Origin: a virus
IMG/VR virus record: IMGVR_UViG_3300045988_138996
Span: 128,001 to 192,000 of that record
DNA: 64,000 nt
Strand: one strand, 5' to 3'
The notes under the pieces: generated by a model
What the model was told of the DNA's origin: nothing
Databases searched by the model: none
Seen by the model: the letters and a program-made list of their open reading frames with translations, nothing else
Translations under genes and position numbers: made by a program
Part shown: positions 7,595 through 61,772 of the stretch, piece by piece
Layout of the letters: each line of letters begins with the position of its first letter
Numbering within the stretch: the first letter of the stretch is position 1

Positions 7595-9703
7595 ATGGCA
7601 AATAATTTTCTAAACAAAATCGACTTTACTAAAGGTGTAAAGGCAAGACCTATCAATGAAAATTTTGAAATGGTCCAAGATTGGATCGATCAGGAACGAT
7701 TACAATCTGCAGGCTGGGGCATTATCTCTGGTTTTGAATTTAGCCGACGTGGCGATGAGTTCATTATCGATATAACAGAAGGTGAACTTATTAATCGTGC
7801 CGGTCATAAAATTAAACTAGATCCGGCATTCGTAAATGTAGGTGAACCACAAGCTATTCAATATTTTGAAAAATTTACGCTTGATGCTACCGGTGAAATT
7901 ACGTTACGTTTCCCAGTATATGCTCCTTCACAATTAAAACAAGTTGTATATATTGCAGGTGTTCAAGGTGAGTTACCAGATACTAAAGAGTTTCGTGTAT
8001 ATGATTTAGAAACACAAGAAATTCTTCAAATCGCCTCTATTAATAAACAAACAATTCATATTGTCGATCCGGAAGGTAACGAAGGACGCAAAGTCGGTGT
8101 CGTATATAACTATGCATCATCTCATATTGATACGATTGTATATAATGAAAAAACTCCGGAATTATATCCTAAATATCATTATGGTATTTTCTCTGCGTCA
8201 CCGGCTTTTCCTGATTTAAATCAGTTTGAAGAACAAGGTGATATCATTCTTGGCTGGGTATATTGGACAATCGATGAAAACGGTATTTCTGTAAAATTCT
8301 TTTACGATAATAAAAATACTCGTCCAATTTATGTCGACAAACATGGCAATATTTATTTGTATGGTAAATTATATTCTAAGACGCAGCGCAAGTTTATTTA
8401 TTTCATAGAGCCAACTAATCCAGAACCAAATGATTTATGGTATGATAGTGATTCTAATATCTTATACATTTGGCGCCAATTTAATGGTGGCGATTACCAA
8501 TGGGTTCCAGTAAATGAACATAGTACGATGGATCTTCACGAAACGAAGTTGTTCATTCCAGATGAAAATTTAACTAACGAAGAAAATGAAAAACAAACGT
8601 TTATCTTTGACGAAGCCGATACGAATATGTTTTTCTTACCACGGTCTAATTCTTTAGACGTATATATCGATCAAGGATATATTATGAAAGACCAGTATGT
8701 CGAAATGGTCATGCTTAAAGAACAAGATCGGAATGGTGATCATTTAATCGTTCCTGATAATCCTAAATATAAGCTAAGCGATATTATTAAGGGCGTCGGT
8801 TTTAAATTAAACTATGCGTTAAATGAACCGACTGTTGTACAAGTTAACGTTCGTCATACTATTAAAAAGGGGAAGGAATCTGGTGTATTCCAACGTGCTG
8901 CTGTATTCGTCGAAGAAAAACGTATTATTTATAATGAAGATTCATATCCTAATAATACAAGAATTATTAAATTGCCGACGACATATGAATACGGTAAACA
9001 ACAACTCGAAGTGTTTTTAAACGGTATGAAACTTCATAGTGGCTCTTCTGACGAAGTAGATTTTAGTGAAGTGCTTCCTGTACCGACAGAAGATAATCCA
9101 AACCCAACACTAACTAATAAGTTTATTATTAATAATAATATTAACTTAAAATATGGCGATCGTATTATATATCGCATTTCTCATTATGTTTGGTCTTACG
9201 AACAATTAGAATCTATCGTTACAAATGCCCAAGAAGGCATTAAGGAAACAAAAGATTTAATTACGAATGTCGATAAAAAATATTCACGCATTGTCGATAC
9301 ATTTGATCCGGCATTACAATCGATTCAGAATATCATTACCGATTTAAAAGAATCGACTCTTAATACAGATAATTTTGTTAAGAAGACTGATAAGATTACA
9401 AAAGATATGCTCGATGATTCTGTTAAACATGGTTTGTATAAAGAACTTAAACAGTATGAAATTACGGTCGATCCGACGAATACGATTTATCCGTTACAAC
9501 ATACTGTACAACAAGATCAAATGTCTTTCGTATTATTAGATCAATATACAGGTAATAATAAAATCGATAATGCTAATATCAGTACGATACTTAATTATGG
9601 TACTGATTATGTATATATCGATAATAATAAGATTAAGTTATCTGCTGGTCTTATTAGAAATACAAGAAAACTTAAATTTATGGTTATTTCCTTTGGAGTG
9701 TAA
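7595..9703 (+). CDS. Tail-fibre/baseplate-associated structural protein
   Basis: 702 aa. Carries motifs that recur in the downstream fibre genes: NPEPNDLWYDSDSNILYIWRQFNGGDYQWVPV, LEVFLNGMKL and KKTDKITKDMLDDSVKHGL. Confidence 0.7.
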   Translation: MANNFLNKIDFTKGVKARPINENFEMVQDWIDQERLQSAGWGIISGFEFSRRGDEFIIDITEGELINRAGHKIKLDPAFVNVGEPQAIQYFEKFTLDATGEITLRFPVYAPSQLKQVVYIAGVQGELPDTKEFRVYDLETQEILQIASINKQTIHIVDPEGNEGRKVGVVYNYASSHIDTIVYNEKTPELYPKYHYGIFSASPAFPDLNQFEEQGDIILGWVYWTIDENGISVKFFYDNKNTRPIYVDKHGNIYLYGKLYSKTQRKFIYFIEPTNPEPNDLWYDSDSNILYIWRQFNGGDYQWVPVNEHSTMDLHETKLFIPDENLTNEENEKQTFIFDEADTNMFFLPRSNSLDVYIDQGYIMKDQYVEMVMLKEQDRNGDHLIVPDNPKYKLSDIIKGVGFKLNYALNEPTVVQVNVRHTIKKGKESGVFQRAAVFVEEKRIIYNEDSYPNNTRIIKLPTTYEYGKQQLEVFLNGMKLHSGSSDEVDFSEVLPVPTEDNPNPTLTNKFIINNNINLKYGDRIIYRISHYVWSYEQLESIVTNAQEGIKETKDLITNVDKKYSRIVDTFDPALQSIQNIITDLKESTLNTDNFVKKTDKITKDMLDDSVKHGLYKELKQYEITVDPTNTIYPLQHTVQQDQMSFVLLDQYTGNNKIDNANISTILNYGTDYVYIDNNKIKLSAGLIRNTRKLKFMVISFGV

Positions 9704-9706
9704 TTC

Positions 9707-10141
9707 ATGCAAAATACATTGACATGGATGGTTCTCGATGAAAAAGAATTTAATATTTATAGTACTTATAAAGCCGGAGTTATTACTTCGGCTTCTCGTA
9801 CTGTAATCCCGATTCGTCTATATAATAATTATATGGGCGTTGAGAAACAGCCAGATTTAAAAAATTTCGGCATTAATTTTTATTTTACCGATATCGAAGA
9901 TTCTTCTTTATTAGATAATATAAAAATTTTAAATGCTGAATCTGTCGAATTACCAACGACTCGATTAAATGAAGTGTTAACAGTTAATTTAACGAACGAG
10001 GTAATTATTAGCGGCGCTCCAAATAAAGGAGATAGCAAAGATAATTATTATGATTTTAATATCGTAATAGAATTACCTAAAGACGTTAAATATAAAATTA
10101 ACGATCTTAAAGAATTAACTTGTGATGTTGTCTATTATTAA
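9707..10141 (+). CDS. Small structural protein, unknown role
   Basis: 144-aa ORF starting 3 nt after the upstream stop and ending just before the AGGAGG of the next gene. Confidence 0.65.
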   Translation: MQNTLTWMVLDEKEFNIYSTYKAGVITSASRTVIPIRLYNNYMGVEKQPDLKNFGINFYFTDIEDSSLLDNIKILNAESVELPTTRLNEVLTVNLTNEVIISGAPNKGDSKDNYYDFNIVIELPKDVKYKINDLKELTCDVVYY

Positions 10142-10154
10142 GGAGGCCTATTAA

Positions 10155-13100
10155 TTGAAACCTACATGGGGCATTCGCAAATTAAATGAATATTCCGTCG
10201 ATAAAAATACGGCAATTATCATTACTGATAGCGAAAAAGATAATTACTATTGGGCCGATATTCCTGATGGCTCATTATTAGTTAATGATAAAACTGGTAA
10301 TCTTTCTATTAAATTAACAGGAGAATCTGATTGGGTACCGATGGGTATTCGTAAAGACGGTACTGAAAAATTAGTTAAAGATGCGATTATTAACGTCGAA
10401 TATTATACGATTGTTAAATTTGAATTAGAACATAATCGATTCTATTATCATGACCGTGAAGAAATTACTCGTATCGGTAAGTTAATTAACGGTAAAGCTC
10501 AGTTTAAAGTTGGTTCTGGTTTGTATTTACCAGGAACTAATCAACTTGAAGTATTGATTAACGATAGTATTCATCGTAATACAGTCGATGGTGGTCTTGA
10601 AGAAATTAATATGAAGTATTTCCAAATCGATGCCGACGATATTCGATTGGGTTCTACTGTTACGGTTCGTTATATTAATTACGAACGATTAAGTGAATTA
10701 TATCCATTTATCTATACACAAGAACAAGTTCCTTGGTTTTTTGAAGATAAAGACTTATGGATTAATCCATCTGACAACGTTGATATCAATGGATTAACAA
10801 TTACACCATTAAGTTATTATGTAAAATATTTAGATAATAACGAAGCTGAAGTTATTGTATTTACGACAAAAAATTCTCGATTAATTGCATCGAGAAAAAT
10901 GAACGAATATGTAAATAAAATTACGGATAAAAATATTAATCGTTTCAAAGTGACGAGAGAAAATAATAATTTCTATATTAATTTATTTTCGACATATCCT
11001 GGATATAAAACTTCGTTTGCTAAAGTTTTAATTAAAGGATTAATTTCTGACGAAGATAAATTAACACTCGATGTTGATTTAACGTACCCTAATAGTGGTA
11101 TGGCTAAGACATCTATTAAGACACAACTTGGTAATATCGTTACGATTAAACGTAATAATAAAAAAATCTATGCTGCACAAAATATCGGTATCGGTGTACA
11201 ACATACATTAGCTCGTGAGGATCATGATTATGATATTATAGTATTTGTTAAGAATCCGATAAATGGCTTAACTAAAGAAAAAGTATTAACTGTTGACCAT
11301 CGAAAAATTGTTTTAATGGCCGATATAAGCCATGAAACAACTAATACTGGAACGAACATAACAATATCGACAATATCAAATGCCGATGTGAAAATAGAAG
11401 TGTTAAATGATGTAACAAATCAATTTGAAGAGATTGTTTTAGGTCGCTCTAATGAGTCTGGGAAATATAATTTTATTGTTCCTATTACCACTGCAAAAAA
11501 AAGATATAGAGTAATTATTTCTAGCGATAAAGCAGATAACAAGATTAAAGAAGAATTTGATGTATTTTTACATCGTGGTTCTCCTGAGTTATCTGCATCT
11601 CATACAAGAAATAAAAACGACATTTCTTTAACGATAAAAACAGAATCTGGTTCTAGAGTTTTGGTTAAGTATAATGGAAACATTATTCATTCAAATATCG
11701 CCGATATTAATAATACTGATATTTATATGTTTGATGCAGATTATGAAAAAGATAGGGTATTCGTAATTGAGTCGACGAAAGAAAATAAGATTTTTGAAAC
11801 TATTAATTATACTATTCCAAAATCAGAAAAATATATTCCAGATATTCTGTTATCTTTAAAACAAATCCCTGCAAACTTTATTAACGAAACAAATACATAT
11901 CGATATGAAGGTAGTTTCCTTAATATAAAAACAGAATCTGGATCACTTATTACTGTATACAATGAAGACGGAACATTATATAAAGATAAATTTAATCCTG
12001 ACGGGATTGAAAATTTATTATCTAATAACTTCTCCGACGGCGGATTATCTTTAACAAATCTTCCATTAAATAGACGTAAGTATTTTTTGCCACAACGCAG
12101 AACAGATAAAGTATATAAATTAAAGTCTATAAAGCACGGAAAAATAGACGAAGAAATAACTTTTACTGTTTTAGGCTCTGGTCTTAATGAATACGAAGCA
12201 ACTTCTGATGACAATAGTTATGTATTAAATCCTTATATCGACCTTTATGAAAATTCTGATTCTTATAGAACTTTCAAAATTAAAATAATAAAAAGAGATG
12301 AGTTCTCTGAACCGTCTATTTATTCTCCATCTAAAGTTCAAATAAAAAATAAACCAGATACATTAATTACTTATAACAATATTGATGGTAAAGACTATTT
12401 TAAAGATCCTACGCTGTATGGTGGTCCTTCTTCATATAGTGTTTATTTTGATAAAATAAATAATACATATAAAGCCAATCAAAAACTTTTAAATCATTTT
12501 ATGAATTTAAGATCTGATAATTCTTTTGGTTTTTCCATTCCAGTTAAAATTAACAATATTGATGAATTAATAAAGACTCAAACATATACATTTGTTGTCG
12601 ATAATGATCAAGAATACACTTTTACATATTCTCCTGTAATGCTTCACTATAAGAATCTTGATGATTTATTAATTAGAGTATCTTCTGATAGAATGAATAA
12701 TTCTGAATATAAAGATATCATAAACAGCATTAGCAGAAAAGGATATGATTCCTCTGTTTATTTATCTGGTGCTGATTATGTTACAAAATATGCTTTAAAT
12801 TCAAATGTTAAAGTTATTCATCCATCTTTAATTCGTCATATATCTATTTCTACTGATAGAGGATATAATTTAGAAACAGAAAAAAATAGTTTAGTTTCCA
12901 AATTAAAAGAAAAAGAATACATCAAAAATGATGAGCAAGAAGTAGTTGTTGATAATTTTAATCTTTTTGGGAATCAAAAATTAATTAGAACAAAAGAAGA
13001 ACGTAACCATGTTTATGTTTTACAACTTTCTAATTCAATAGAATTATTTCCTCTTAATTTCCAATATGAATATGCAACAGCATTACTTAAAAATAATAAA

Positions 13101-15149
13101 AAATATGAAAGTCACGTTAATACAGATGCCTATTGTCCTAATTTTATTTTTGATTTAAGAAATATTAGCGAAGAATCAAAACAAATTTCTGTTCCGATAA
13201 AAATAAAAAGAAATAAAGTTTTCTTTGATACATTAAAGGAATTAGGATATTCTTCTAACGATTATCATAAGAGCAATGAAATAAATCAAATTAATCTTGG
13301 ATGTCGAAATTTATTAATTTTATCAAATAGAGAAACTGTTCCTTCTAACTATTATAATGCTGTCGACAATATAAATATATCTGGTATTTATTATATGCCG
13401 AATGTAACATCTGTAAAAGATGATGCATTAAGTATGTTATCAAGAACATTCGTTTATTTAAATTATCCAAAATTAAAACAACTTGGAAACGATTGTTTCT
13501 ACAATTTATATTTTAATGATGGATATGTTGGAAGTCTTTATGCAGAGTGTACGAATTTAGATAATGATAATACTATCACAATTGATAATACGAATTATCA
13601 GATTCTGGCGCGGCGCTCGCCATTCCCTTCGAACGGAAATAGTGATGGCAAATTTAAGCTAAAAATAATAGCAGATAATTGGTATCCAAATATTACAAGT
13701 ATCGATGATGTCGATAAAAAAATAGTAAATAAATTTGTATTTGTATTATCTGGTCTTGAAGAAATTATTTATGATAAGAATGATCTTACTTTTACGTATC
13801 CAATTTTAAACGGAAAAATTACGACACAAAATTGGGCAGTATCTTATTCTTATCCTCATATCGATTCTACTAAAGTTAAATCTAATAATATTTATAAAAA
13901 TAGTGCTAAATTCTTTAATTGTAGTTATTTAAAAAAAATAAACTTAGACTATTTTAAAAACTATTTTTCTGATTATGTCGATTTCCAAGAATGTCGAAAT
14001 GTTGAAACAATTATTATGCCAAAAAATTATTTGGTAAAAGGAACACTTTCTCGAACATTTGAATATTGTGGCGTTAGCACAATAGAAAACTTTGATAATT
14101 TATTAGTTTGTAACGAAAATTTAAATTCTACGTTTAGAGGATGTACAGAATTGAAATCTGATTTAAATATGAATTATTTAAAAGTTACAGATTCTTCTGC
14201 ATTTGAAAAGTGTGGAAAATTGTCAAATTTTGTATATCGAAAAGTAAATGTCAATGTTGATTGTGAAGGAAATATTGTAAATCTTGACGGATGTTTAGAG
14301 GCATCTGAGCGCGGAGAAAAAATAATACAAAATAATTATAGTTATTATTCTGACACTTCTATAACGCAAGAGTCTTTTGATAGAATTAAAAAGCATATGA
14401 AAAAGATGACAAGATCTCAATTTGCAAAATGTAAAAATATTAAAGAACTTGTTATCGATCAAAATTGCCCTCTTGTTTATTTTATGAATGCATTTAATAC
14501 ACCATTGAAAAAGATAGTCTTCGATAATAATACTATCGATTGGCTAGAAGTAAATGATGAAATGTTTAAGGATAACGATTTAATTTCTAACGCTCAAGCT
14601 TATAAAATAAATTCTAATAGTTTACGAATATTTAATGCCGGACAAAATAGTTTAGGTTTATATAGTTCTATTCATAGTTTAAATATGCCAAATTTAAAAT
14701 ATTCTTTTGTTGCTAGTCCGAATAAATTGCTTGGTGTATATCATGTCGATCAATTAGAAAGATCGTTGTTTACAAAGCATATTCCAGATACCGCTGGCAT
14801 AAATTCAGGTGTAACATATAGTGTTTTCAATAAAAGTAATTCTGAAAATGTTATACAAAATGAAGAACTTCAATTAATGAGTACTGCGTTCACATCTCAT
14901 TTCTTCGATGAAAGTATAAATAAAAATGATATTAAAATAAAAAAACTCATTTATATGTCAAAAGATTATAGCATATCAGAATATGATGGTATTATATGGA
15001 CTGATTCCGTATTTTTAAGTGATTATCATCTTAAAAAATGGGTTGAAACAATGAGATGGCCTGCATTGGAAGAAGTCGAAGTTAAGACAAATATTTTTTA
15101 TCCGGAAAAAACTGTTTTAGGAGTCAAAATTAAATATGTCCAAGCTTAA
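10155..15149 (+). CDS. Giant tail fibre / receptor-binding protein (1664 aa) with C-terminal BspA-type leucine-rich repeats
   Basis: TTG start 8 nt after a perfect AGGAGG (10141-10146). The N-terminal ~180 aa are shared with the next two genes. LRR_5-like F..C..L repeats are present: KFFNCSYLKKINL, DFQECRNVETIIMP, TFEYCGVSTIENF, TFRGCTELKSDLNM, AFEKCGKLSNFVY, QFAKCKNIKELVI. Confidence 0.75.
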   Translation: MKPTWGIRKLNEYSVDKNTAIIITDSEKDNYYWADIPDGSLLVNDKTGNLSIKLTGESDWVPMGIRKDGTEKLVKDAIINVEYYTIVKFELEHNRFYYHDREEITRIGKLINGKAQFKVGSGLYLPGTNQLEVLINDSIHRNTVDGGLEEINMKYFQIDADDIRLGSTVTVRYINYERLSELYPFIYTQEQVPWFFEDKDLWINPSDNVDINGLTITPLSYYVKYLDNNEAEVIVFTTKNSRLIASRKMNEYVNKITDKNINRFKVTRENNNFYINLFSTYPGYKTSFAKVLIKGLISDEDKLTLDVDLTYPNSGMAKTSIKTQLGNIVTIKRNNKKIYAAQNIGIGVQHTLAREDHDYDIIVFVKNPINGLTKEKVLTVDHRKIVLMADISHETTNTGTNITISTISNADVKIEVLNDVTNQFEEIVLGRSNESGKYNFIVPITTAKKRYRVIISSDKADNKIKEEFDVFLHRGSPELSASHTRNKNDISLTIKTESGSRVLVKYNGNIIHSNIADINNTDIYMFDADYEKDRVFVIESTKENKIFETINYTIPKSEKYIPDILLSLKQIPANFINETNTYRYEGSFLNIKTESGSLITVYNEDGTLYKDKFNPDGIENLLSNNFSDGGLSLTNLPLNRRKYFLPQRRTDKVYKLKSIKHGKIDEEITFTVLGSGLNEYEATSDDNSYVLNPYIDLYENSDSYRTFKIKIIKRDEFSEPSIYSPSKVQIKNKPDTLITYNNIDGKDYFKDPTLYGGPSSYSVYFDKINNTYKANQKLLNHFMNLRSDNSFGFSIPVKINNIDELIKTQTYTFVVDNDQEYTFTYSPVMLHYKNLDDLLIRVSSDRMNNSEYKDIINSISRKGYDSSVYLSGADYVTKYALNSNVKVIHPSLIRHISISTDRGYNLETEKNSLVSKLKEKEYIKNDEQEVVVDNFNLFGNQKLIRTKEERNHVYVLQLSNSIELFPLNFQYEYATALLKNNKKYESHVNTDAYCPNFIFDLRNISEESKQISVPIKIKRNKVFFDTLKELGYSSNDYHKSNEINQINLGCRNLLILSNRETVPSNYYNAVDNINISGIYYMPNVTSVKDDALSMLSRTFVYLNYPKLKQLGNDCFYNLYFNDGYVGSLYAECTNLDNDNTITIDNTNYQILARRSPFPSNGNSDGKFKLKIIADNWYPNITSIDDVDKKIVNKFVFVLSGLEEIIYDKNDLTFTYPILNGKITTQNWAVSYSYPHIDSTKVKSNNIYKNSAKFFNCSYLKKINLDYFKNYFSDYVDFQECRNVETIIMPKNYLVKGTLSRTFEYCGVSTIENFDNLLVCNENLNSTFRGCTELKSDLNMNYLKVTDSSAFEKCGKLSNFVYRKVNVNVDCEGNIVNLDGCLEASERGEKIIQNNYSYYSDTSITQESFDRIKKHMKKMTRSQFAKCKNIKELVIDQNCPLVYFMNAFNTPLKKIVFDNNTIDWLEVNDEMFKDNDLISNAQAYKINSNSLRIFNAGQNSLGLYSSIHSLNMPNLKYSFVASPNKLLGVYHVDQLERSLFTKHIPDTAGINSGVTYSVFNKSNSENVIQNEELQLMSTAFTSHFFDESINKNDIKIKKLIYMSKDYSISEYDGIIWTDSVFLSDYHLKKWVETMRWPALEEVEVKTNIFYPEKTVLGVKIKYVQA

Positions 15150-30175: not shown

Positions 30176-30183
30176 GGTTATTA

Positions 30184-42252: not shown

Positions 42253-42264
42253 GGAGATATATTC

Positions 42265-45029: not shown

Positions 45030-45042
45030 AGGTATATAATCT

Positions 45043-45603: not shown

Positions 45604-45608
45604 CGCTA

Positions 45609-50833: not shown

Positions 50834-50834
50834 A

Positions 50835-51092
50835 ATGAGTAAAATATTTAAAATGATGCTATTTGAAAACGAAGGACTTAGTTACACACGCGTCATTTCT
50901 TTTACGTTATTATTGTTATTGGTCGGTGTTACGTTATACTTAGTAATTACAGGACATAATTGGCAACACTACGATACGTTAGCTAATTTAACTGGTGGCG
51001 GTTCTGCTGCGACACAAATTGCTAATAAATTTATAAATAGTAAATATAATAGTGAAATCGGAACATATAAGGAAAAGAATGATGCCGAGTAA
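50835..51092 (+). CDS. Small single-pass membrane protein (lysis accessory?)
   Basis: 85 aa from the ATG at 50835, 1 nt after the holin stop (track start 50811 is also possible). One TM segment (VISFTLLLLLVGVTLYLVI) and a Gly-rich polar tail. Confidence 0.55.
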   Translation: MSKIFKMMLFENEGLSYTRVISFTLLLLLVGVTLYLVITGHNWQHYDTLANLTGGGSAATQIANKFINSKYNSEIGTYKEKNDAE

Positions 51093-52923: not shown

Positions 52924-54048
52924 ATGCCTGATCAAATACAAAATATTTCGAATGAAATTTTAGAATATAAAGATAAAATTTTCTTTAAGATGTTTAGCGA
53001 TATCTTAAAAGAAAAGAAAGCGCCTTTTCCTGAAAATATTGCGCATTATCTAAATTTGTTGATTTCGACTGTAGGAATAAGACCTGAAAGAATTATATTA
53101 GAATCTGTTAAAAAAGAAAATAATCAATATATCGTATCATTAAGAGGTCCATTCGATAGCTATATCGAAATTAACGGTATTCCGACTCATTTTGATAATG
53201 AAGGTAATATAACTGATTTTAGCGTACCGATTTTGATTAAAGCAGACGATATTCTTAATTTCTATATTTCGGTCGTTAATTTTCCTTATAAAAAAGAAAA
53301 ACCTGCTAGCTACACTAACAATAAAACAGTTCAAGATATGATTAATACTATCGAAATTTCCGATTTATTAGAAACATATAATAAAATCGAAGAACCTGCT
53401 ATCGGCGTATTAAAATATCTTAACAATATTGAAGCTACTTACGATGTAATACCTCATTGGATAAGTAAATTAGACGCTCAAAATACTACAGGTAAGGGAT
53501 TTATTAATTTTACAAATGGTTCAAATGTACCAATAAAAATAGTATTTAACAATCAGGAACATATTCTTTTAGAAAATAATTCTATCGATGTTCCATTTGA
53601 TTTAGATGAATTTTTAGAAGTTTATAAAAATCCTGAATATAATCAAGTTCATATAAATAACTCAGAAGGAACAAACGTATCGAATGTTCAAATCATGGAT
53701 CTTTTAACTCAAGAAGAGTTAAATAATGTTCGATTAACTGTAAATACTGCTATCAATAGAACTAACGATCAAGAGTTCCCGGCAAGAATTAAACCAATTC
53801 TTGCTAATACTAAGTTTTTCGGCGAAGCCGGATACTATGTTAATTTCATGGGCTCCGTTATAAAAGTACCGTCTCAAACTGAAGCCAACGGTGGTATTCC
53901 AGTATCCAAGGCTGAAGTTTTAGCTATGGATGAAAATAATAAAAAACTATTTATTTGTGATAAAGATGGGAATATGATTGGTAAATCAATTACTCCGACA
54001 ACCTTTGTTACTAATAATGTAAAAACAATAAAAGCATTGATTAAATAA
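52924..54048 (+). CDS. Member 1 of a three-gene family (conserved ~95-aa N-terminus, unique C-terminus); function unknown
   Basis: 374 aa. AAGGAG-N-TATACATGCCTGAT start region is almost identical to that of 54062. N-terminus MPDQIQNISNEILEYK...KKAPFPENIAHYLNLLISTVGI...PFDSYIEINGIP. Confidence 0.6.
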   Translation: MPDQIQNISNEILEYKDKIFFKMFSDILKEKKAPFPENIAHYLNLLISTVGIRPERIILESVKKENNQYIVSLRGPFDSYIEINGIPTHFDNEGNITDFSVPILIKADDILNFYISVVNFPYKKEKPASYTNNKTVQDMINTIEISDLLETYNKIEEPAIGVLKYLNNIEATYDVIPHWISKLDAQNTTGKGFINFTNGSNVPIKIVFNNQEHILLENNSIDVPFDLDEFLEVYKNPEYNQVHINNSEGTNVSNVQIMDLLTQEELNNVRLTVNTAINRTNDQEFPARIKPILANTKFFGEAGYYVNFMGSVIKVPSQTEANGGIPVSKAEVLAMDENNKKLFICDKDGNMIGKSITPTTFVTNNVKTIKALIK

Positions 54049-54061
54049 ATAAGGAGTATAC

Positions 54062-55642
54062 ATGCCTGATAATAAAATACAAGATATAGCTAACGAGATT
54101 ACGGCTTACAAGCCGTATACATTATTTTCTTTGATGGAAAAATCTTTAAAAGAAAATAACGCTCCATTTCCAGAAGAAATTGAATATTATTTAAAGAAAA
54201 TGATTAAATCAATTGGTATTGGCATCAACAGTCTTTTTATTAGCAATGTCGTTAAAAATGATAATAAATATACGTTTACTATTAGTACTCAACCATTTAG
54301 TTATTTAGAAATAAACGACGTTTCTCAAAATATTAAAGAAAATACTAGTATTACTGTTGAAGCCAACATCGACGAAGAAAATCCATTTCCGTATGTTAAA
54401 TTTTTATGGGCTCCTAAGAATAAAAAATTACCTGAAGGATATCAAAAACCTGAAGATAGTGAATACTTAAAAAATTGTACTAATAATTTTTCTTTAAATA
54501 AAGACGATGTTCATATTAACGACGTTGAAGTTGGTTATTTGTTATCTAGAAGTATATTCTCTACTTTTTTCCCGACAAATAAACCATATGTATCTATTCC
54601 TAATGAAGATATAAGTAAAATAAAAATTAATAATCTTGCTCCGAATAAAAAATATAACATAAAAGGATTTAAATTTACAGCCGATGAAAATGGCGAAGCA
54701 GTAATTAATGAAGCAACAAGCGTTGCCGAGAAGTTTAATGAACTTGTGACAAACGTTCCTGTTTCTTTTGACTATGACGGTAAATTTAAAGATTATATCG
54801 ATATTGCAACATATGCCGATATACCTATTACAATGGACCATTCAAAAGATAGTCTTCCATCGGTCTTTTATCGAGATTTCTTTCTTTATAATGGACTATT
54901 TGGCGATAGTGACAATTATTTACATCATATTGTAAATAATTATCATGAGCCATTAGAAATAGAATATCTAGGGGAAACAAAAATTATTCCTGTCGGACAA
55001 AATTCTGAAGAATTTAGTTCTAAAATTACTGCCGATCTTTTGTCAAAAATAAAACCAGATACAACTGAAATAAAGTTAAAAATTAAAAATAATTTTAATT
55101 ATCCTTGGACAAAAGAAATTGAGCATCCTAATCAATATAATATTTTAGGCCAAAATTGTATTCGTAACCTTACTAGTCAATCTTATTTTTATTATGATTA
55201 TTCTTTTGAAGAACTTAAAGCATTCAATTTTAATGGTAAATCTTGTAGTTTAGCAAAAAACGAATATGGATATCGCACAGATCTTGAAAGACAATTCTAT
55301 ACTGTCGATAATGTGTATAAAACTATTTCTGATACAGAAGCATCTGGAGCTGTCGATCTTCTTCCACCAGGGAACTTACCAAGTCACACAGATAATTTAA
55401 CTTTTGTTTTATGTGGAGATAAAACTTCTAGAACATCTAGAACATTTAATTTCTCCCAAGGGATAAAAACTATTAACTCGATTAAAGCTTATAAAAAAGA
55501 TGGGAATTGTCATATTCTTTTAAATTATAATACGAATACACAAAATAATATAGAAGAAGATTTAGGTTTAGAGCGATTTTTGTTTACAGAATCTGAAGCG
55601 CTTCAAGCATCTGGTATTTTAATTGCGACAGAAGAATTTTGA
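54062..55642 (+). CDS. Member 2 of the three-gene family; function unknown
   Basis: 526 aa. N-terminus MPDNKIQDIANEITAYK...NNAPFPEEIEYYLKKMIKSIGI...PFSYLEINDVS. The C-terminus is unrelated to the other members. Confidence 0.6.
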   Translation: MPDNKIQDIANEITAYKPYTLFSLMEKSLKENNAPFPEEIEYYLKKMIKSIGIGINSLFISNVVKNDNKYTFTISTQPFSYLEINDVSQNIKENTSITVEANIDEENPFPYVKFLWAPKNKKLPEGYQKPEDSEYLKNCTNNFSLNKDDVHINDVEVGYLLSRSIFSTFFPTNKPYVSIPNEDISKIKINNLAPNKKYNIKGFKFTADENGEAVINEATSVAEKFNELVTNVPVSFDYDGKFKDYIDIATYADIPITMDHSKDSLPSVFYRDFFLYNGLFGDSDNYLHHIVNNYHEPLEIEYLGETKIIPVGQNSEEFSSKITADLLSKIKPDTTEIKLKIKNNFNYPWTKEIEHPNQYNILGQNCIRNLTSQSYFYYDYSFEELKAFNFNGKSCSLAKNEYGYRTDLERQFYTVDNVYKTISDTEASGAVDLLPPGNLPSHTDNLTFVLCGDKTSRTSRTFNFSQGIKTINSIKAYKKDGNCHILLNYNTNTQNNIEEDLGLERFLFTESEALQASGILIATEEF

Positions 55643-55676
55643 CCATTTATAATATAAAATAAAAGGATAATTTAAT

Positions 55677-56768
55677 ATGTCTGAAAACAATCAAATTCAA
55701 GAAATTTCTAAATTAATAGCTTCATTATTTTCTCAAGGTTTTAAGCCAGAATTCGAGAAATTTTTAGCCGACAAAAACATTCCGTTTGCAAACCAAACAG
55801 ATTTATATATACAACGATTATTTAATAGCGTATTAAATATCCCGAACGTTGAAATTATTTCTTACGACTTTAATGGCTCTGATATTACAGTAAAATTATC
55901 TGGGCCTTTTAAATCTTATGCTAATATCAATGGTAAAGATGTTAATTTTGATAATAATGGAATTGCGACTACTGTTGTTAAAAATGCAAAAGTTTCCTCT
56001 CAAAATGAAATCTTTTTAAATTTATTAATTCAGTCTGCACCATTTAGAACAGAAAAAGATTCTTCTTTTGTTATTGATTCTTTTTCTGCAGAAGAAGATA
56101 TTGAGAGCAAAACTTTTGATCTTGCTTATGAAGAAGAAGATAGATTATATAAATTTTTAATTTCTAAAAAAATATATAACGATAGTTTATCAAATATTCT
56201 TAGAGCCGAATTTTTAAATAATAAAATTATTGTTAAAAATACAGCGCCATTCGATATTTATGTTAACAATCAAAAGATTAAGAAAAATTCTAAAATAGAA
56301 ATTCCACTTACTATTAAAAATTTATTAGATAGTAATAATACTTATTCTGGAACTATTTATGATTGGAACAATAAACAGCTAATGGGCGATTACGGATCAA
56401 TTATCTCGACACAAGCTTTTAGCGCAGATATAGAGCAAAAATTTAATGAATTATTTGACCGAACAAAAGATTATAATCAAGATGGATTATATTTTGACAA
56501 AGATTCTGCTCTTAGAGATTATAATAGTTCTAAAATTAATTTTAAAAAGACTATTGAATTCAAAAATAATAATCCTATAAAATATCATATAATCGATCAT
56601 TATGGAATAAAATCTGGTCAAGTAACTCCAGCAGATCTTAAAGATATTGTTGCTTATCAATGTCCATCTTCATTAGAAACATATTTTTATGATTCTACCG
56701 GTAAACAGAAATATATTGGAAATTTTGGCATCAATGATGGCTTTATTATTTTTGATGTAGGTGAATAA
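55677..56768 (+). CDS. Member 3 of the three-gene family; function unknown
   Basis: 363 aa. N-terminus MSENNQIQEISKLIASL...KNIPFANQTDLYIQRLFNSVLNI...PFKSYANINGKD. Unique C-terminus. Confidence 0.6.
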   Translation: MSENNQIQEISKLIASLFSQGFKPEFEKFLADKNIPFANQTDLYIQRLFNSVLNIPNVEIISYDFNGSDITVKLSGPFKSYANINGKDVNFDNNGIATTVVKNAKVSSQNEIFLNLLIQSAPFRTEKDSSFVIDSFSAEEDIESKTFDLAYEEEDRLYKFLISKKIYNDSLSNILRAEFLNNKIIVKNTAPFDIYVNNQKIKKNSKIEIPLTIKNLLDSNNTYSGTIYDWNNKQLMGDYGSIISTQAFSADIEQKFNELFDRTKDYNQDGLYFDKDSALRDYNSSKINFKKTIEFKNNNPIKYHIIDHYGIKSGQVTPADLKDIVAYQCPSSLETYFYDSTGKQKYIGNFGINDGFIIFDVGE

Positions 56769-56773: not shown

Positions 56774-57367
56774 ATGACATACGAAGAACAATTAAAACAA
56801 GTTCGTGATAACGTTATTAAAAACGTATATCCGACTATTCAACAACAAGGTTCTTCGAACACCATGATTACTTTGCATTGGACAGCTGGTCATTACGACC
56901 AGTTGTTCGATGATTATCATATGTGTATCGATGGATCTGGTAATGTACATATAATGCAAGATTTAGATAATCGTGCTAGTCACTGTTATCGTGAAAACAC
57001 AAATAACTTTGGTATTTCGGCGTGCTCTAATTATGGTTCCGAATTAAATGGCGACGGCTTTACAGGTTATTCCACATACATACCAGGTTCTGAGCCTGTT
57101 AATGCATTACAACTCGAAGCAATGGCGACTGTTATATATTTATGTTGCGTATCTTGGTGTTTACCGTTAAGCCAAGTATTCACTCACGGTGAACGCTGTT
57201 TGGCACGTCAAGACTTATACGATTATCCGGCAGAACGTTGGGATCTTGATATACTCGTTCCAGAATGTCATACTCGTACTGAAGACGGTTTACATACTGC
57301 AGGCGGTAATTGGATTCGTAACCGTGCTCGTGAAATCGCTAAGATGAACGGAATTAATTATTTATAA
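56774..57367 (+). CDS. N-acetylmuramoyl-L-alanine amidase (Amidase_2/PGRP-type) endolysin candidate
   Basis: 197 aa. ITLHWTAGHYDQLFDDYHMCIDGSGNVHI...ASHCYRENTNNFGIS...VFTHGERC fits the Amidase_2 pattern (hWTAG....YH..Id.dG......H....N...GI....H). No separate cell-wall-binding domain is visible. Confidence 0.6.
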   Translation: MTYEEQLKQVRDNVIKNVYPTIQQQGSSNTMITLHWTAGHYDQLFDDYHMCIDGSGNVHIMQDLDNRASHCYRENTNNFGISACSNYGSELNGDGFTGYSTYIPGSEPVNALQLEAMATVIYLCCVSWCLPLSQVFTHGERCLARQDLYDYPAERWDLDILVPECHTRTEDGLHTAGGNWIRNRAREIAKMNGINYL

Positions 57368-57379: not shown

Positions 57380-60300
57380 ATGTCTATTATTTCTGAAATT
57401 GCACAAGGTTTAAGTTCGATTCTAAGAAAGAATCAAAAGCCTGTAATGCAGTATGCTGAAAATATCGCTTTAGTTGCCGAAGTTCCTTTCGACAAAGAAA
57501 AGGTAAATCAATGCCAAGGCTTTACATATAATCCTCAAACAGAAAAATTTATCGTAGCTTGTATTAATGCTGATAGCTCTACACAAATCTTATATGAGTT
57601 AAATAAAGATTTTACTGTCGCGCGAAGTGTAGAAAATACTGGCGCCGATAAACTTGGTCACTGTAATACTTTATTTTTCGACGATAAGCTACGAGCTACT
57701 AATGGTGCTGCTAACGGTAATCGTATTTACGCGATCGATGATAATTTAAATGCAGGTGAATATAAAGACTATACCGATCGTTTCTATAACGTAGGTTATA
57801 ATCCTGTTACGGGCCAATATGCTAGCGTATTGCCTGGCGAAGATAATAGCACTCGTAAAATTAAAATCTACGCTAATAGCGATTTGACCGACGGTAAAGA
57901 ATATATCGTTACCGTGAATGAGAAAAATAACGATTCTAACGGTGCTTTGTTCGTCGGTAATAAAGTTATATTCAGTTTAATGAGACGCATCGTCGAAGTC
58001 GAAATTAGCGATAATACGGCTACTATCATTCGTGAACTTGAGTTCGAACCAAAGGCCGAAATCGAAGACTTCGCATTAGTCGATGGTGCTATTTATATGG
58101 CAGCTAATAGCCACGACTATATTCGTATCTACAAATATGATTTTGCTAGAAGCTATTTTAATAATATCAATAACGACTTTTTAAATAATGGTATCGTAGT
58201 CGGTAATCAAGTCGGCTATCACGGTCAATCTGTCGACAAAGCTACTAATTATGTTATGGCTAAAATTAATGCTAATAACAATTTAGAAGTCGGTGACAAA
58301 CGTAATTTAACGACAATCTTGGGTAAAGAATTAAAACATTATAACGGTACTAATTCTTATACGGTACTTACGACATATCATTACGATAAAGCGATTTACA
58401 ATAAAACTAAGACTGATGAGCTCTTTGTTAAAAAAGCCGATGTTCAAAGTTTAGTCGGTGGTAAAAAATCTCTTAATGTCGTTGCAGAAGGTGTCGATAA
58501 TACTGGCGCTATCGACGTAACTGAAAAGTTAAACGAAATCTTTGTTAAAGCTAATGCCGAAAAATACGAAGAAGTAATTTTCCCTGACGGTATTTATAAG
58601 ATCGAAAATGTCGTAAAGATTTTCTGCCCAGAAAAGATGAGTCGTTCTTTAATCGTTAGATCCGAGAATACTTATGGCGCCACTATTCTATGCGATCATA
58701 CCGATGCATCTCAAGGTGATATCGGATTTGTATTGACTCGTAATGCCTTAGAAGATCAAGATGAGACAGTAGCAAAAGCTTATAATACCACGATTGACGG
58801 TTTTATTTTTAAAGTTAAAGATCAAGATGCCGAAGGCAGTAGCTTTAAATTTATTGGTACTGCTAGTGACTTTAATGATTTATTATTTATTAATCTAAAA
58901 TTATTAAATCTTCGGATGACTAATACTAAAGATTGTGCTGGTAATAATATCGATTTAGCTGCTAGATGTAATAATTCAACGATCGATAACATCAAAACTA
59001 ATTATGGTATGTATGCTATATATTTAGAGCATGATGGCAGTGTAAATAATAGCATAAGTAATATTGTTTCTAATAACTGTACTTTCTGTATATCTTCGTA
59101 TACATACGCTGATTATGAAACTGTTACTTTCCATTTTGACGATACTGTCGATTTAAATAATGGTAATATGGCTAATTTCTACGCTAATAAAATATCAAAC
59201 TTTAAATTGACTGGTAGATGGGCTCTTAATCAAAATCCATTGTATATTAACGTTGGACCAAGAGCGGAGATTAGTAATGTTACGTTAGATATTACTCTTG
59301 ATGAAAATGCCGACCATGTACTTGTAGAAGAAAAACCTTCGGCATTTATTTATTTAACATCACCAGAAAGTGCCAAACTTGAAGTTAAAGTAAATGATCT
59401 TAAATTCGATAAATTCCAAGAAAACTTCGACTACTGGATACAAAAAGGTACTAAATTCTCTTGGATCAATTCTCCAGAATTATCTATCTCTCCGAATGGC
59501 GTTACTGAGTATCCTGCATTAACTTTATTTAACAATTTAGGTTCTGTCGATGAATATAGTTCTAGAGGTTTCCTTAATAGAAAATATGAAATCAAAGCGG
59601 AAGATTCAGCTAAAACAAGAATCTATTTAGGTTATGATAGAACTATTCATGAAGCAAAAATTGATAGTAAAGATGAATTAGCTGACGGTGAAGGTTCTGC
59701 TATCTTCTTCGGTGCTAATGGCGTTCCTTATAAAGACGCTAAAGATCATGATTATAGTAATTATGCTGCCGGTGTTGCTGGCGATGTGTATTTAGAATCT
59801 AAGCCAAATAACTCCGGTCATTTTGGTTATGTATCGACTTATCGTTATACGACACGAACTGAATATTTACCGACAGCTGATAAGCCTACTTCTGTTACTA
59901 ACCATGGTGATAGAACAATGACTTTTGGCTTCGATAAATTCCCAGTATGGACTAACGGCACATTAAAAGACACTCCGATTACTGTCGGTAGTGGAATGAA
60001 TGTATTGGGTAAAGGTCTCTTTAAGGTTATCGAAACTGATGTCGAAGCTAAAACTATGAAGTGTGAGATACCTGAGACTTATAAATCCGATGTTATTACT
60101 TCATTAGCTGACTTAACTATGGAAATCTATTTCACACCGGCTAAACCTGTTAATACTATGGGTATGATGACATATGAAACAATTCCGATTATTCATTCTG
60201 GTCCTACAGAAAAAAGACCGACTGAGCACTTAGTTGTCGGCCAACAGTATTTCGATACAACACTCGATATGCCGGTATTCTGGAACGGTACTAAATGGAT

Positions 60301-60496
60301 CGTTAATGCTGCCGATGTTAGCGACAGATTAAAAGATTATGTTCGCATCGACAAACTTATGGCAACCGATATGACACAAGCACCAGCGTTTGCTGGACAA
60401 ATGATAATAGATAATAATACACTTTATATCGCAGAGTCTACTGAAGGCCCTGGATCTTGGCGTATAGTTTATTTACAACCTAACGATCATTTATAA
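57380..60496 (+). CDS. Tailspike / polysaccharide depolymerase candidate with a pectate-lyase-type beta-helix
   Basis: 1038 aa. LNVVAEGVDNTGAIDVTEKLNEIFVKANAEKYEEVIFPDGIYKI matches the Pectate_lyase_3 entry motif. Downstream N/T/I-rich repeats fit a beta-helix. The C-terminus carries the GPTEKRPTEHLVVGQQYFDTTLDMPVFWNGTKWI motif. Confidence 0.75.
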   Translation: MSIISEIAQGLSSILRKNQKPVMQYAENIALVAEVPFDKEKVNQCQGFTYNPQTEKFIVACINADSSTQILYELNKDFTVARSVENTGADKLGHCNTLFFDDKLRATNGAANGNRIYAIDDNLNAGEYKDYTDRFYNVGYNPVTGQYASVLPGEDNSTRKIKIYANSDLTDGKEYIVTVNEKNNDSNGALFVGNKVIFSLMRRIVEVEISDNTATIIRELEFEPKAEIEDFALVDGAIYMAANSHDYIRIYKYDFARSYFNNINNDFLNNGIVVGNQVGYHGQSVDKATNYVMAKINANNNLEVGDKRNLTTILGKELKHYNGTNSYTVLTTYHYDKAIYNKTKTDELFVKKADVQSLVGGKKSLNVVAEGVDNTGAIDVTEKLNEIFVKANAEKYEEVIFPDGIYKIENVVKIFCPEKMSRSLIVRSENTYGATILCDHTDASQGDIGFVLTRNALEDQDETVAKAYNTTIDGFIFKVKDQDAEGSSFKFIGTASDFNDLLFINLKLLNLRMTNTKDCAGNNIDLAARCNNSTIDNIKTNYGMYAIYLEHDGSVNNSISNIVSNNCTFCISSYTYADYETVTFHFDDTVDLNNGNMANFYANKISNFKLTGRWALNQNPLYINVGPRAEISNVTLDITLDENADHVLVEEKPSAFIYLTSPESAKLEVKVNDLKFDKFQENFDYWIQKGTKFSWINSPELSISPNGVTEYPALTLFNNLGSVDEYSSRGFLNRKYEIKAEDSAKTRIYLGYDRTIHEAKIDSKDELADGEGSAIFFGANGVPYKDAKDHDYSNYAAGVAGDVYLESKPNNSGHFGYVSTYRYTTRTEYLPTADKPTSVTNHGDRTMTFGFDKFPVWTNGTLKDTPITVGSGMNVLGKGLFKVIETDVEAKTMKCEIPETYKSDVITSLADLTMEIYFTPAKPVNTMGMMTYETIPIIHSGPTEKRPTEHLVVGQQYFDTTLDMPVFWNGTKWIVNAADVSDRLKDYVRIDKLMATDMTQAPAFAGQMIIDNNTLYIAESTEGPGSWRIVYLQPNDHL

Positions 60497-60505
60497 TAAA
60501 GATAT

Positions 60506-60534
60506 ATCCCCGTACTTAGTGCGGGGATTTTTTC
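60506..60534 (+). terminator. Rho-independent terminator
   Basis: ATCCCCGTAC-TTA-GTGCGGGGAT forms a 10-bp stem with one G.U pair, followed by TTTTTT. The core is nearly identical to the 31315 terminator. Confidence 0.85.
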
Positions 60535-60581
60535 TGTAATATAGTAGTATATATTTTAAATCTACGAAAGGACATATTCAT
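60535..60581 (+). promoter_or_regulatory. Promoter/leader candidate related to 40652-40714
   Basis: TGTAATATAGT (60535-60545) and ACGAAAGGACAT lie just upstream of the ATG at 60582, matching TGTAATATAAT and ACGAAAAGGACAT upstream of 40715. Confidence 0.4.
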
Positions 60582-61772
60582 ATGCCAGAAACTAATATAT
60601 ACGATTATGAGTTCACCGTTAATGAAAGTGAACCTAAGAGGGCCGAGATGCTCAATCGGTTGAAAGACCGTGTGCAGCACGTTGATAAAAAAGAAGTTAT
60701 CTCGTCTGACGAATACATCGACGGCGAATCTAACTTTAACGAAGATAAAGCATTAAGTGCTTTTTTGTTAAATAAATTGTTTCCGTCTAAAGCTAAACTA
60801 TTAAAAGATCATTATACAAAAGATCAAGTCGACGGTTTGTTGGGCAATCTTATCGCTAAATATTATTTAAAAGATCAGATCGATTCGCTACTCGCCAACT
60901 TAAAGAATGAATTAAAATCCTCTTTAGATGCGAACGGTAGCGAAGCTGTTAAAAAGCTTAACGATCTCAAAACAGAATTATCTAAACATCGTACGCTTGA
61001 GGAGTTAAATCATCCTGATGCTAGTGTTACGACAAGAAAGTTACGTGATCATTCTGTCACAAAAGAAAAGCTTTCAGACGGTTTAACTACAGAATTAAAT
61101 AATAAGTTAAATAAAAATGGCGACACTATCACTGGTCCTCTTAAATTTGCTTATAGTAATCCGATTCTTATGGAAACAGGCCCTGGTACTGGCAAATATC
61201 ATCGTATCGGTTCTGGCTCTACGTTGGAAGAAATCGCGCAAGGCAAAGCTCATCTAGACTTAGGTGATTACGACGGTAACACTTACGAAACTAATCTATG
61301 CTGTGTTAGCCGTCCAGGTTGGTATAATTCTACGACAAAAGAAGTTAAACAATTTGCCCTTCAGGAAGAAATCGAAGCATTAAATAATAAAGTAAACAAT
61401 ATTCCTAAAGGTGGTGGCGGTAGCTCTACCTTCGCTAAGATTTCAGCTAATAAAATTTGGAGCGGTCGTGTTACTGTTAGGAATAATAGAGGATCCAGAT
61501 CTAAGCCAAAATTTAAAGTTTGCGATCTTCCGTCAGATTGGCAACAAATTATCATTTATTCCTCTATTGAGCAACGAGCATCTGATAATGATAGCGGTTG
61601 GTATAACTATATGACAGGTTGTTTCGCGATTCTAGTAAAAGGCATAGCAACTGACGTTATTGCTGGTTATCAAGGTGAACAAGAAGTAAAATCTTTCTTT
61701 GTCGAAGGTAATACTTTATATATGCGTGGTCTTACTCCGAACGGTGACGACGTAAGCGTATTTAACCTTTAA
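60582..61772 (+). CDS. Tail fibre protein
   Basis: 396 aa. Coiled-coil YTKDQVDGLLGNLIAKYYLKDQIDSLLANLKNELK, then HPDASVTTRKLRDHSVTKEKLSDGL and NKNGDTITGPLKF (GDTMTGxL-type fibre motif). It forms its own transcription unit between two terminators. Confidence 0.75.
   Translation: MPETNIYDYEFTVNESEPKRAEMLNRLKDRVQHVDKKEVISSDEYIDGESNFNEDKALSAFLLNKLFPSKAKLLKDHYTKDQVDGLLGNLIAKYYLKDQIDSLLANLKNELKSSLDANGSEAVKKLNDLKTELSKHRTLEELNHPDASVTTRKLRDHSVTKEKLSDGLTTELNNKLNKNGDTITGPLKFAYSNPILMETGPGTGKYHRIGSGSTLEEIAQGKAHLDLGDYDGNTYETNLCCVSRPGWYNSTTKEVKQFALQEEIEALNNKVNNIPKGGGGSSTFAKISANKIWSGRVTVRNNRGSRSKPKFKVCDLPSDWQQIIIYSSIEQRASDNDSGWYNYMTGCFAILVKGIATDVIAGYQGEQEVKSFFVEGNTLYMRGLTPNGDDVSVFNL

Follow-up and report, generated by a model that had tools for sequence, protein, structure and literature searches.

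Several jumbo phages are known in which a single virion carries many receptor-binding proteins, including CBA120 (tailspikes TSP1-4), RaK2 and phiK64-1 (10 fibre proteins, verified in RaK2; PMC10253068), and phiKp24 (14 predicted; PMC9700779). In these systems the N-terminal attachment parts are conserved while the distal parts vary, and in RaK2 some of the genes are clustered apart from the main structural module (PMC10253068). A different elaboration was described for Bacillus phage 0305phi8-36, whose contractile tail has a baseplate with three corkscrew fibres (Hardies et al. 2007, PMC2147016); its baseplate and/or fibre genes lie downstream of orf151, and the phage has, besides numerous additional virion proteins and coiled coils, paralogue domains within its genome and a hyperplastic exchange/fibre region (PMC2147016). 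The present analysis concerns a 64,000-nucleotide stretch of the viral record IMGVR_UViG_3300045988_138996 (positions 128,001 to 192,000; hereafter the window, with genes labelled 'g' plus their start position within it), in which an earlier note had listed 20 fibre- or spike-type genes. Judged from sequence comparisons, the window probably belongs to an uncultured jumbo phage of approximately 230 kb in the contractile-tail lineage of 0305phi8-36 and Moorella phage MTATph1, and it probably encodes a very elaborate tail tip with conserved anchors and swappable binding ends.

Four properties of the locus are demonstrated: (i) paralogue families that share an anchor; (ii) exchange of distal modules between co-circulating genomes; (iii) diverse distal domains; and (iv) a conserved periphery. 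The locus is similar to CBA120, RaK2 and phiKp24 in its many receptor-binding proteins with conserved N-terminal attachment parts and variable distal parts, to RaK2 in having some of the genes apart from the main structural module, and to CBA120 in that one protein, g20492, displays a domain-level fold likeness to the N-terminal adaptor region of TSP4. Unlike CBA120 and RaK2, it has only one protein of the beta-helix depolymerase type (g57380), the others carrying leucine-rich repeat (LRR), immunoglobulin (Ig)-like, adhesin-head/collar or other distal domains; its anchor modules show no sequence relationship to those of CBA120, RaK2 and phiKp24; and g20492, the candidate platform, is a conserved scaffold protein in its own right and not, as in TSP4, the N-terminus of a tailspike. 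The modular logic itself is already known; it is found here in a variant with lineage-specific anchors and unusual binding domains.

Relationship to the 0305phi8-36 lineage

The gene run that leads into the window encodes proteins of 1214, 2581 and 3184 amino acids (aa), then of 119, 352, 331, 179 and 263 aa, and finally one of 1694 aa, the tail of whose gene is the first open reading frame (ORF) of the window. The 3184-aa giant corresponds to the baseplate hub gp147 of 0305phi8-36 (phrog_20474, 2e-147; phmmer, 1.7e-73) and to its counterpart in MTATph1 (phmmer, 4.7e-118), in agreement with tblastn matches to 0305phi8-36, the Bacillus phages WH1, Edson and KLEB27-3, and MTATph1. The 1214-aa protein corresponds to gp145 (7e-52 in 0305phi8-36, 6.7e-68 in MTATph1), and the 263-aa protein to the P2 gpJ-like baseplate protein gp151 (5e-7 and 1.2e-12, respectively). 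Within the window, g32000 and g31404 match DnaB gp182 (6e-60) and gp180 (7e-18) of 0305phi8-36, g26746 resembles gp171 (2e-5), a virion protein verified by mass spectrometry (MS), and the top match of DnaE is in MTATph1.

Gene order is shared as well: both genomes contain a giant virion protein, a tape-measure-sized gene, a giant hub with a lysin region, and gpV-like and gpJ-like genes, after which a long run of baseplate/fibre genes leads to DnaB and a DnaE-type polymerase. Because both homology and order match 0305phi8-36, the first 31 kb of the window are identified as the distal baseplate/fibre module of a known, poorly sampled lineage, and in 0305phi8-36 nearly all of gp151-gp175 are MS-verified virion proteins. 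The lineage is therefore recognisable, as that of 0305phi8-36 and MTATph1, for which a complex and paralogue-rich module was described in 2007 (PMC2147016). Homologues in common are the hub, gp145, gp151, gp152-type domains, gp171, gp180 and gp182, with identities of approximately 28-35% at best. Sheath and tube genes are annotated in 0305phi8-36, and a contractile tail is attributed to the present phage through its lineage. The curly-fibre genes of 0305phi8-36 flank the head module, the matching region of which lies outside the window; with the curly-fibre candidates gp119, gp129 and gp131, no window profile matched except for a weak similarity between the g20492 domain and gp119 (E = 7e-4).

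The window divides into three parts:

1-31 kb, + strand: distal part of the baseplate/fibre module
31404..40632, + strand: replication/transcription block (gp180 homologue, DnaB, resolvase, sigma factor, RecJ-like protein, DnaE), which stands outside the adsorption apparatus
40.7-61.8 kb, + strand: second unit, clade-specific, with lysis genes

Strong terminator-like hairpins lie exactly at gene ends (25851-25871, 31309-31339, 35548-35567, 40621-40641, 60506-60528 and 61777-61819), marking unit ends at g23780, g30184, the sigma factor, DnaE, g57380 and g60582, respectively. Terminator-like sites numbered 20 and 18, compared with 8.1±3.2 and 9.4±2.3 in shuffles; promoter-like sites in the window were not above background. 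The second unit begins 3' of the hairpin that follows DnaE, and because of that hairpin it is regarded as a separate transcription unit.

All 49 ORFs of at least 100 aa lie on the + strand, at a GC content of approximately 30%. They sit in a metagenomic contig of 229,838 bp (ENA ERZ27263341), and the same genes recur on many contigs of 217-256 kb in IMG/VR and other collections, which group at approximately 95-99%, 86% and 80% identity to the window. The NCBI nr database holds the same genome as a third-party-annotated (TPA) 'Caudoviricetes sp.', in which only three of the genes are named: g57380 ('tail spike protein'), g51726 ('baseplate wedge protein') and g17661 ('Cell surface protein'). 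A megablast comparison of 12 kb of the window with deposited phages gave no match, and Pfam and PHROGs searches, which covered nearly every protein of the window as well as the small genes upstream, gave almost none. The genome is itself a recombinant: positions 1-51000 are 95-99% identical to one group of relatives (cluster A), while positions 51700-64000 share 88-100% identity with three members of a second group (cluster B), which on the left is only 55-65% identical.

The presence of YadA-like and BspA LRR domains, together with a 134-kb copy of the genes binned as 'Clostridiales bacterium', would suit a bacterial adhesin island, or a tailocin or contractile-injection-system locus, in place of a phage virion. 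Such an origin is extremely improbable: near-identical contigs, hundreds in number and many of them in IMG/VR, gather at 217-236 kb; DnaE, DnaB, a sigma factor, an endolysin and the hub are all encoded by the locus itself; and its gene order is conserved with two cultured jumbo phages. A host scan of a genome collection returned a single 1.7-kb fragment from a Clostridia metagenome-assembled genome.

An affinity to SPbeta-like siphophages, considered from a Bacillus spizizenii context, was superseded by the link to the 0305phi8-36 hub. The contig concerned (L141, from Logan SRR24034309) carries homologues of g20492, g23780 and the g10155-type N-terminal module, adjoining a BhlA-type holin and an LXG toxin/immunity pair, a context that hints at a relative which either resides in a Bacillus genome or was co-assembled with one. 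Separately, the 1214-aa gp145 homologue harbors a LAGLIDADG-type intein in a relative of 98-100% identity (L167:72-3716, approximately 20 kb upstream of the window), with a Pfam LAGLIDADG_3 match at 3e-8 and Intein_splicing below threshold.

Exchangeable and conserved proteins of the first module

The identities given below for individual genes refer to near-complete relatives, and are to be read against a cluster B baseline of 55-65% for ordinary genes and 74% for DnaB. The variable proteins of the first module, and the two small paralogues that come after them, are the following:

10155..15149, + strand: g10155, receptor-binding protein of 1664 aa; anchor at approximately aa 1-280, BspA-type LRR at approximately aa 1253-1363
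15136..16995, + strand: g15136, receptor-binding-type protein of 619 aa; same N-terminal module, divergent C-terminus
16995..17630, + strand: g16995, 211 aa, nearly the N-terminal module alone
17661..19211, + strand: g17661, fibre-type protein of 516 aa; conserved N-terminus, heptad-rich middle, C-terminal BspA/TpLRR-type LRR at aa 412-505
19221..20488, + strand: g19221 and g19862, full-length paralogues of 214 and 208 aa; NLSDL..A..NL[GK]L motif

The clearest exchange is seen at g10155, where residues ~380-1664 are replaced by unrelated sequence in genomes that are otherwise 93-96% identical across 15-34 kb, while a more distant genome retains the distal part at 90.7% identity; at least four cassette types occur at this locus. 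The BspA-type LRRs announced by the earlier note are present here, LRR_5 (PF13306) scoring 29.9 bits against a cutoff of 27.7 when the g10155 C-terminus is scanned alone. Among other cassettes of the locus a sub-threshold Ig domain was found, and a distant relative with the same N-terminal module has a sub-threshold collar domain. That module is common to g10155, g15136 and g16995 by both BLASTP and hhalign, the latter giving g15136 a probability of 98.5 to g10155, and g16995 probabilities of 97.9-98.1 to the other two. In g15136, which has several C-terminal types, identity falls from 75-79% to 28% between the N- and C-termini; variation in g16995 is confined to the last fifth, and this protein is possibly an adaptor or cap instead of a complete fibre.

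A comparable gradient (79 to 38%) and two C-terminal types distinguish g17661, whose LRR region matches solved structures in the PDB (4fs7, 3e-8; 4gt6, 1e-5; TpLRR, 5e-5) and scores below threshold for LRR_5 in Pfam (21.8 bits). The paralogues g19221 and g19862 match each other at an hhalign probability of 100 and gave no family matches; their motif is what points to a putative fibre role.

These genes are set among, and followed by, proteins that are more uniform:

1..3846, + strand: C-terminal 1186 aa of the 1694-aa baseplate-module protein (gene call in L002)
3843..7591, + strand: two baseplate-module proteins of 688 and 561 aa, so assigned by position in the module and not claimed as fibres
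7595..9703, + strand: g7595, 702 aa, with a P.NP..DLW motif; 84% identity in cluster B, flat profile
9707..10141, + strand: g9707, 144 aa, between g7595 and g10155; 88-90% identity in cluster B
20492..23770, + strand: g20492, 1092 aa, baseplate-periphery scaffold/adaptor; 86-87% identity in cluster B
23780..25837, + strand: g23780, 685 aa, tail-tip/fibre class by fold and conservation
25896..31326, + strand: five conserved-synteny genes, g25896-g30184, in the same order in the distant relatives L141 and L143

The gene of the 1694-aa protein starts approximately 1.2 kb 5' of the window, directly after the P2 gpJ-like gene, and its product has weak homology to 0305phi8-36 gp162 and to the MTATph1 'virion structural protein' CDS0049 (1e-5 to 1e-9). 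The 688- and 561-aa proteins gave no family matches and show ordinary divergence (57-65% in cluster B). Four proteins, g7595, g9707, g20492 and g23780, are conserved well beyond the 55-65% baseline (84-91% in cluster B), evenly along their length, and are read as scaffold, adaptor and tail-tip parts rather than as swappable receptor binders. Thus g7595, which had been listed among the fibres, is probably a scaffold and not a variable fibre; no homologue of it was found in deposited phages (tblastn) or the PDB.

The family of g20492 comprises 156 representatives, mainly of 900-1100 aa. Its AlphaFold2 model (predicted local distance difference test score, pLDDT, 80) shows beta domains strung in a chain that contains five internal repeats; Foldseek matches the model to chains of the phiKZ baseplate outer periphery (probability 0.75-0.85) and to a cyanophage A4 tail-complex chain. 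Residues 1-335 of CBA120 TSP4 are matched at a probability of 0.97-0.98 over approximately 199 columns, with a template modelling (TM) score, TMt, of only 0.17-0.20. No match was detected to XD-type adaptor proteins at the sequence level, or to phages by tblastn; the repeat domain is homologous to the 0305phi8-36 virion proteins gp152, gp133 and gp135 and to MTATph1 CDS0040. Branching, which the earlier note had proposed, is thus supported to the extent that a likeness to the TSP4 adaptor region and to the phiKZ periphery is present, while branching itself is not shown. The family consensus ends in ...EWR, with the W and R at least 90% conserved.

In g23780, a flexible N-terminus with an LGGKPAADY motif precedes a 38-residue helix (aa 81-118) and beta-sandwich domains. 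Its full-length homologues number 88, are constant in size and reach as low as 23% identity; one of them lies on the Bacillus spizizenii contig. Its model (pLDDT 83; predicted TM-score, pTM, 0.70) matches the Bxb1 tail tip, the Douge central fibre gp20 and actinophage minor tail proteins (Foldseek probability 0.99-1.0, TM 0.16-0.2). The likeness to siphophage tail-tip and central-fibre proteins lies in the beta-sandwich domains and is without sequence similarity, and the context here, unlike theirs, is a contractile-tail lineage. Profile searches of the PDB with the g23780 and g20492 families returned nothing, or one marginal motif match, and the Bacillus homologue P0048 found no match in phages by tblastn. 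A non-structural function for g20492 and g23780, for example as RNA polymerase subunits, was rejected on the ground that their all-beta folds match tail and baseplate parts. Both genes, approximately six others and DnaB retain the same order in L141 and L143, and g25896-g30184 are probably virion proteins.

The second unit downstream of DnaE

The third part of the window contains the following genes:

40715..41458, + strand: g40715, 247 aa; sole PHROG match phrog_11315, no family link
41455..44015, + strand: paralogues g41455, g42265 and g43122; helical N-terminus, YYTKxESD, beta-rich C-terminus, invariant C-terminal Arg
44006..46028, + strand: small proteins g44006, g44502, g45043 and g45609
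46041..50282, + strand: g46041, 1413 aa, Ala/Lys-rich repetitive fibrous protein by composition and motifs
50306..51702, + strand: two predicted membrane proteins with hydrophobic sequences, one with a DUF7338 (PF24027) match
51726..52913, + strand: g51726, fibre of 395 aa; YadA-like head/neck at approximately aa 143-235, Gp10_C/collar-type domain at aa 227-394
52924..56768, + strand: paralogues g52924, g54062 and g55677; common N-terminal ~95-130 aa, unrelated distal parts
56774..57367, + strand: endolysin (Amidase_2; PHROG 5867, PF01510)
57380..60496, + strand: g57380, tailspike of 1038 aa; conserved N-terminal ~400 aa, variable beta-helix centre, C-terminal P..G..W
60582..61772, + strand: g60582, fibre-type protein of 396 aa; two YxxKDQxD motifs, GDTITGPL, variable C-terminus

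Identities of g51726, g52924, g54062, g55677, g57380 and g60582 range from 5 to 100% and are unrelated to the genome cluster, a pattern that marks the right half of this unit as a recombination hot spot. The most mosaic genes of the window are the paralogues g52924, g54062 and g55677 (hhalign probability 96-98, in agreement with BLASTP), which vary from 5 to 100% identity between otherwise near-identical genomes, display at least seven distal types, and in this pattern of variation appear to behave most like receptor binders. The endolysin is 91-98% identical in all relatives despite its mosaic neighbours, and may serve as a conserved flank for recombination; of the two membrane proteins, the first may be a holin.

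Of the recognisable domains named in the earlier note, the tail-collar, YadA-like and pectate-lyase types fall in this unit. The tail-collar domain of g51726 is a Gp10_C domain (PF21939; 72.7 bits against a cutoff of 27, 8e-20), accompanied by matches to PHROG tail families. Its YadA-like part matches solved adhesin heads and necks in the PDB by phmmer (BpaC, 8e-10; SadA constructs, EibD, YadA and 7z47_I) and falls below threshold in Pfam. The head and neck are shared with YadA-type autotransporter adhesins, whereas the C-terminus is Gp10_C and not an outer-membrane beta-barrel anchor; the YadA-like part is a borrowed domain, and the protein is not an autotransporter. The gene is mosaic (71-94% identity), and one member of its JGI cluster is named 'microcystin-dependent protein'.

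The pectate-lyase-type beta-helix is supported through homologues of g57380 that are 71-85% identical and carry PF12708 (Pectate_lyase_3), g57380 itself having no Pfam match at E <= 0.01. Identity along this protein runs 91/90/46/51/70% from the N- to the C-terminus; short variants occur, and a separate 250-kb clade shares only aa ~350-1038. In g60582 a short repeat matches Thermus phage tail fibres (9e-5), identity declines from 87 to 52%, and two C-terminal types are found; the gene is bracketed by terminator-like hairpins, and a PDB sequence search gave no match.

A P..P..G..W..W motif (aa 935-976 of g57380; aa ~95-120 of g20492) has marginal matches to the N-terminus of crAss001 head-fibre proteins (7qof, E = 0.027), to 9d83, a 'Gp49' chain (E = 0.0015), and to the 'virion structural protein' phrog_20787, and is apparently a small module that recurs in unrelated phage fibres.

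The left half of the unit is of another character. The genes g40715-g45043 and g46041 are without receptor-binding-type mosaicism across relatives. The paralogues g41455, g42265 and g43122 (hhalign probability 96-97) have flat conservation, a deep search with their alignment gave 27 matches, all inside the clade, and from their layout they are possible small fibres. For g44006, g44502, g45043 and g45609 no family link or significant match was found, and when the small proteins were scanned against PHROGs at relaxed settings, only noise came back. A crude N-terminal heptad signal occurs among them in g44006 and g44502 only, by a test that lacks both specificity, since DnaB and RecJ are flagged too, and sensitivity, since the helix of g23780 goes undetected. 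The residue that precedes the C-terminal Arg is aromatic or hydrophobic in the three paralogues (...YR or ...WR), and likewise in g44502 (YYR) and g45043 (IMR). The large g46041 contains 19% Ala and 12% Lys, no Cys and eight Y.PKGEY-type motifs, has orthologues of 1045-1801 aa, gave no matches in the PDB or, by tblastn, in phages, and has no detectable relatives outside the clade.

Several of these features could indicate that the products of the small genes at 40.7-45.6 kb and of g46041 are fibres or decoration of the head or neck, chaperones of assembly, or proteins absent from the virion that are expressed together with the adjacent replication genes. The genes stand immediately behind DnaE and not in the baseplate module; cultured relatives have no homologues of them; their conservation is flat, without receptor-binding-type mosaicism; the match of the P..P..G.LW region of the g20492 family to crAss001 head-fibre proteins, although marginal, shows a motif that is not tail-specific; and the curly-fibre genes of 0305phi8-36 adjoin the head module (PMC2147016). 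From the DnaE terminator onward, however, these genes form one transcription unit with undoubted fibre/spike and lysis genes, three of the small proteins carry the YxTKxExD motif as in g51726 and g60582, and the length range of g46041 suits an exposed fibrous protein. A role away from the tail is possible for this group, but less likely than not.

Number of fibre-type proteins and their attachment

All 20 starts in the earlier list correspond to + strand ORFs, and the six motifs cited there all occur in the window, in 1-8 copies against shuffle means of 0.00-0.09; they reach only 12 of the 20 genes, in 1-6 proteins each. Families with conserved N-termini were recovered for {g10155, g15136, g16995}, {g19221, g19862} and {g41455, g42265, g43122}, which take in only eight of the 20. 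Profile-profile comparison yields exactly four paralogue families in the window, the fourth being {g52924, g54062, g55677}, the three most mosaic genes, which the list had omitted. A fibre hallmark in every gene is not borne out, given that g40715, g44006, g44502 and g45043 lack a family or significant match and have at most a non-specific heptad signal, and that g16995 is essentially the shared N-terminal module alone. The genes sort as follows:

g10155, g15136, g17661, g23780, g51726, g57380, g60582: well supported fibre, spike or receptor binder (7 of 20)
g52924, g54062, g55677: not in the list, receptor-binding behaviour (3)
g7595, g20492, g16995: scaffold or anchor-only (3 of 20)
g19221, g19862, g41455, g42265, g43122, g46041: motif only (6 of 20)
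g40715, g44006, g44502, g45043: no specific evidence (4 of 20)

Assignment of the first seven relies on domain or fold evidence, joined by cassette exchange or an N-to-C gradient in all except the conserved g23780. In place of at least 20 fibre genes, approximately seven of those listed are thus independently supported and three are scaffold or anchor-only, and the total of fibres, spikes or receptor binders comes to about 10-13, of which about 10 are well supported. The supported count falls within the published range, and is not clearly above it; the identification as a jumbo phage with multiple receptor-binding proteins stands, in that paralogues share N-terminal modules, differ distally, and have exchanged distal parts between near-identical genomes.

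It has been proposed that all of the genes, 20 or more, encode fibres or spikes of one hyper-branched, 'hairy' apparatus with an attachment logic unlike that of known systems. The fibre-type motifs in 12 genes, the four anchor-sharing paralogue families, the resemblance of g20492 to the CBA120 TSP4 adaptor region, the fibre-like layout of the small genes at 41.4-44 kb, and the extra virion complexity and corkscrew fibres for which the lineage is known (PMC2147016) are consistent with that proposal. It is nonetheless unlikely: g40715, g44006, g44502 and g45043 have only the non-specific heptad signal; g7595, g20492 and g23780 evolve like core scaffold; g16995 is an anchor module alone; the small-gene family is clade-restricted with flat conservation; no common docking domain was found by hidden Markov model (HMM) or hhalign searches; and a conserved anchor with a swappable end is a known logic (PMC10253068, PMC9700779). 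Equally doubtful is a more specific form, in which the clade would mount more than 20 fibre-type proteins on four or more anchor families, unrelated and lineage-specific, docking on g20492 as a conserved multi-repeat platform, through a code independent of T4 gp10-type branching domains, with the 170-300-aa proteins ending in Arg as a new class of miniature fibre; were a repertoire of more than 20 fibres true, it would be the largest receptor-binding repertoire known.

Under the favoured reading of an elaborate tail tip with conserved anchors and swappable ends, each anchor family would dock at a conserved position on the periphery of the baseplate, for which g20492 is a candidate platform. 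The docked anchors would display differing binding domains (BspA-type LRR, Ig-like, adhesin-like head and collar, and pectate-lyase beta-helix), an arrangement that would broaden or switch host-surface recognition. Recombination between co-circulating relatives swaps the distal parts, and the second unit adds the tailspike g57380, the fibres g51726 and g60582, the paralogues g52924/g54062/g55677, and lysis genes. A single docking or repeat domain common to g7595, the g10155-type N-terminal module and g20492 was tried and rejected: a self-seeded HMM stayed within g20492, the best hhalign comparison reached E = 0.006 at 6% probability, and a late g63246 match was an iteration artefact.

Several points weigh against this reading: (i) docking of the anchors on the scaffold is purely inferred; (ii) location in the virion is deduced from synteny and distant homology to two cultured relatives; (iii) neither 0305phi8-36 nor MTATph1 has an equivalent of the 21-kb second cluster that follows DnaE; (iv) most individual candidates have no detectable homologue in either phage; and (v) the fold matches of g20492 and g23780, with TM-scores of 0.06-0.2, are at the domain level only.

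The locus would extend the multi-receptor-binding strategy, so far described mainly for Klebsiella, Salmonella and E. coli jumbo phages with depolymerase tailspikes, to an abundant uncultured clade that uses other binding domains (LRR, adhesin-like head, Ig-like) and other anchors. That clade comprises several hundred clustered protein sequences and many contigs of approximately 230 kb, many of them with Human Microbiome Project (HMP)-style sample identifiers. The cassette exchanges furnish a natural map of anchors versus specificity determinants, of use for host prediction and engineering, and the assignments given here are a first functional outline for a genome that is annotated publicly almost wholly as 'hypothetical protein'.

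Beyond the second unit, positions 61842-63596 hold five small genes (113-125 aa) in an array, of which g62188 and g62549, at least, are paralogous; in cluster A relatives this array is replaced or absent.

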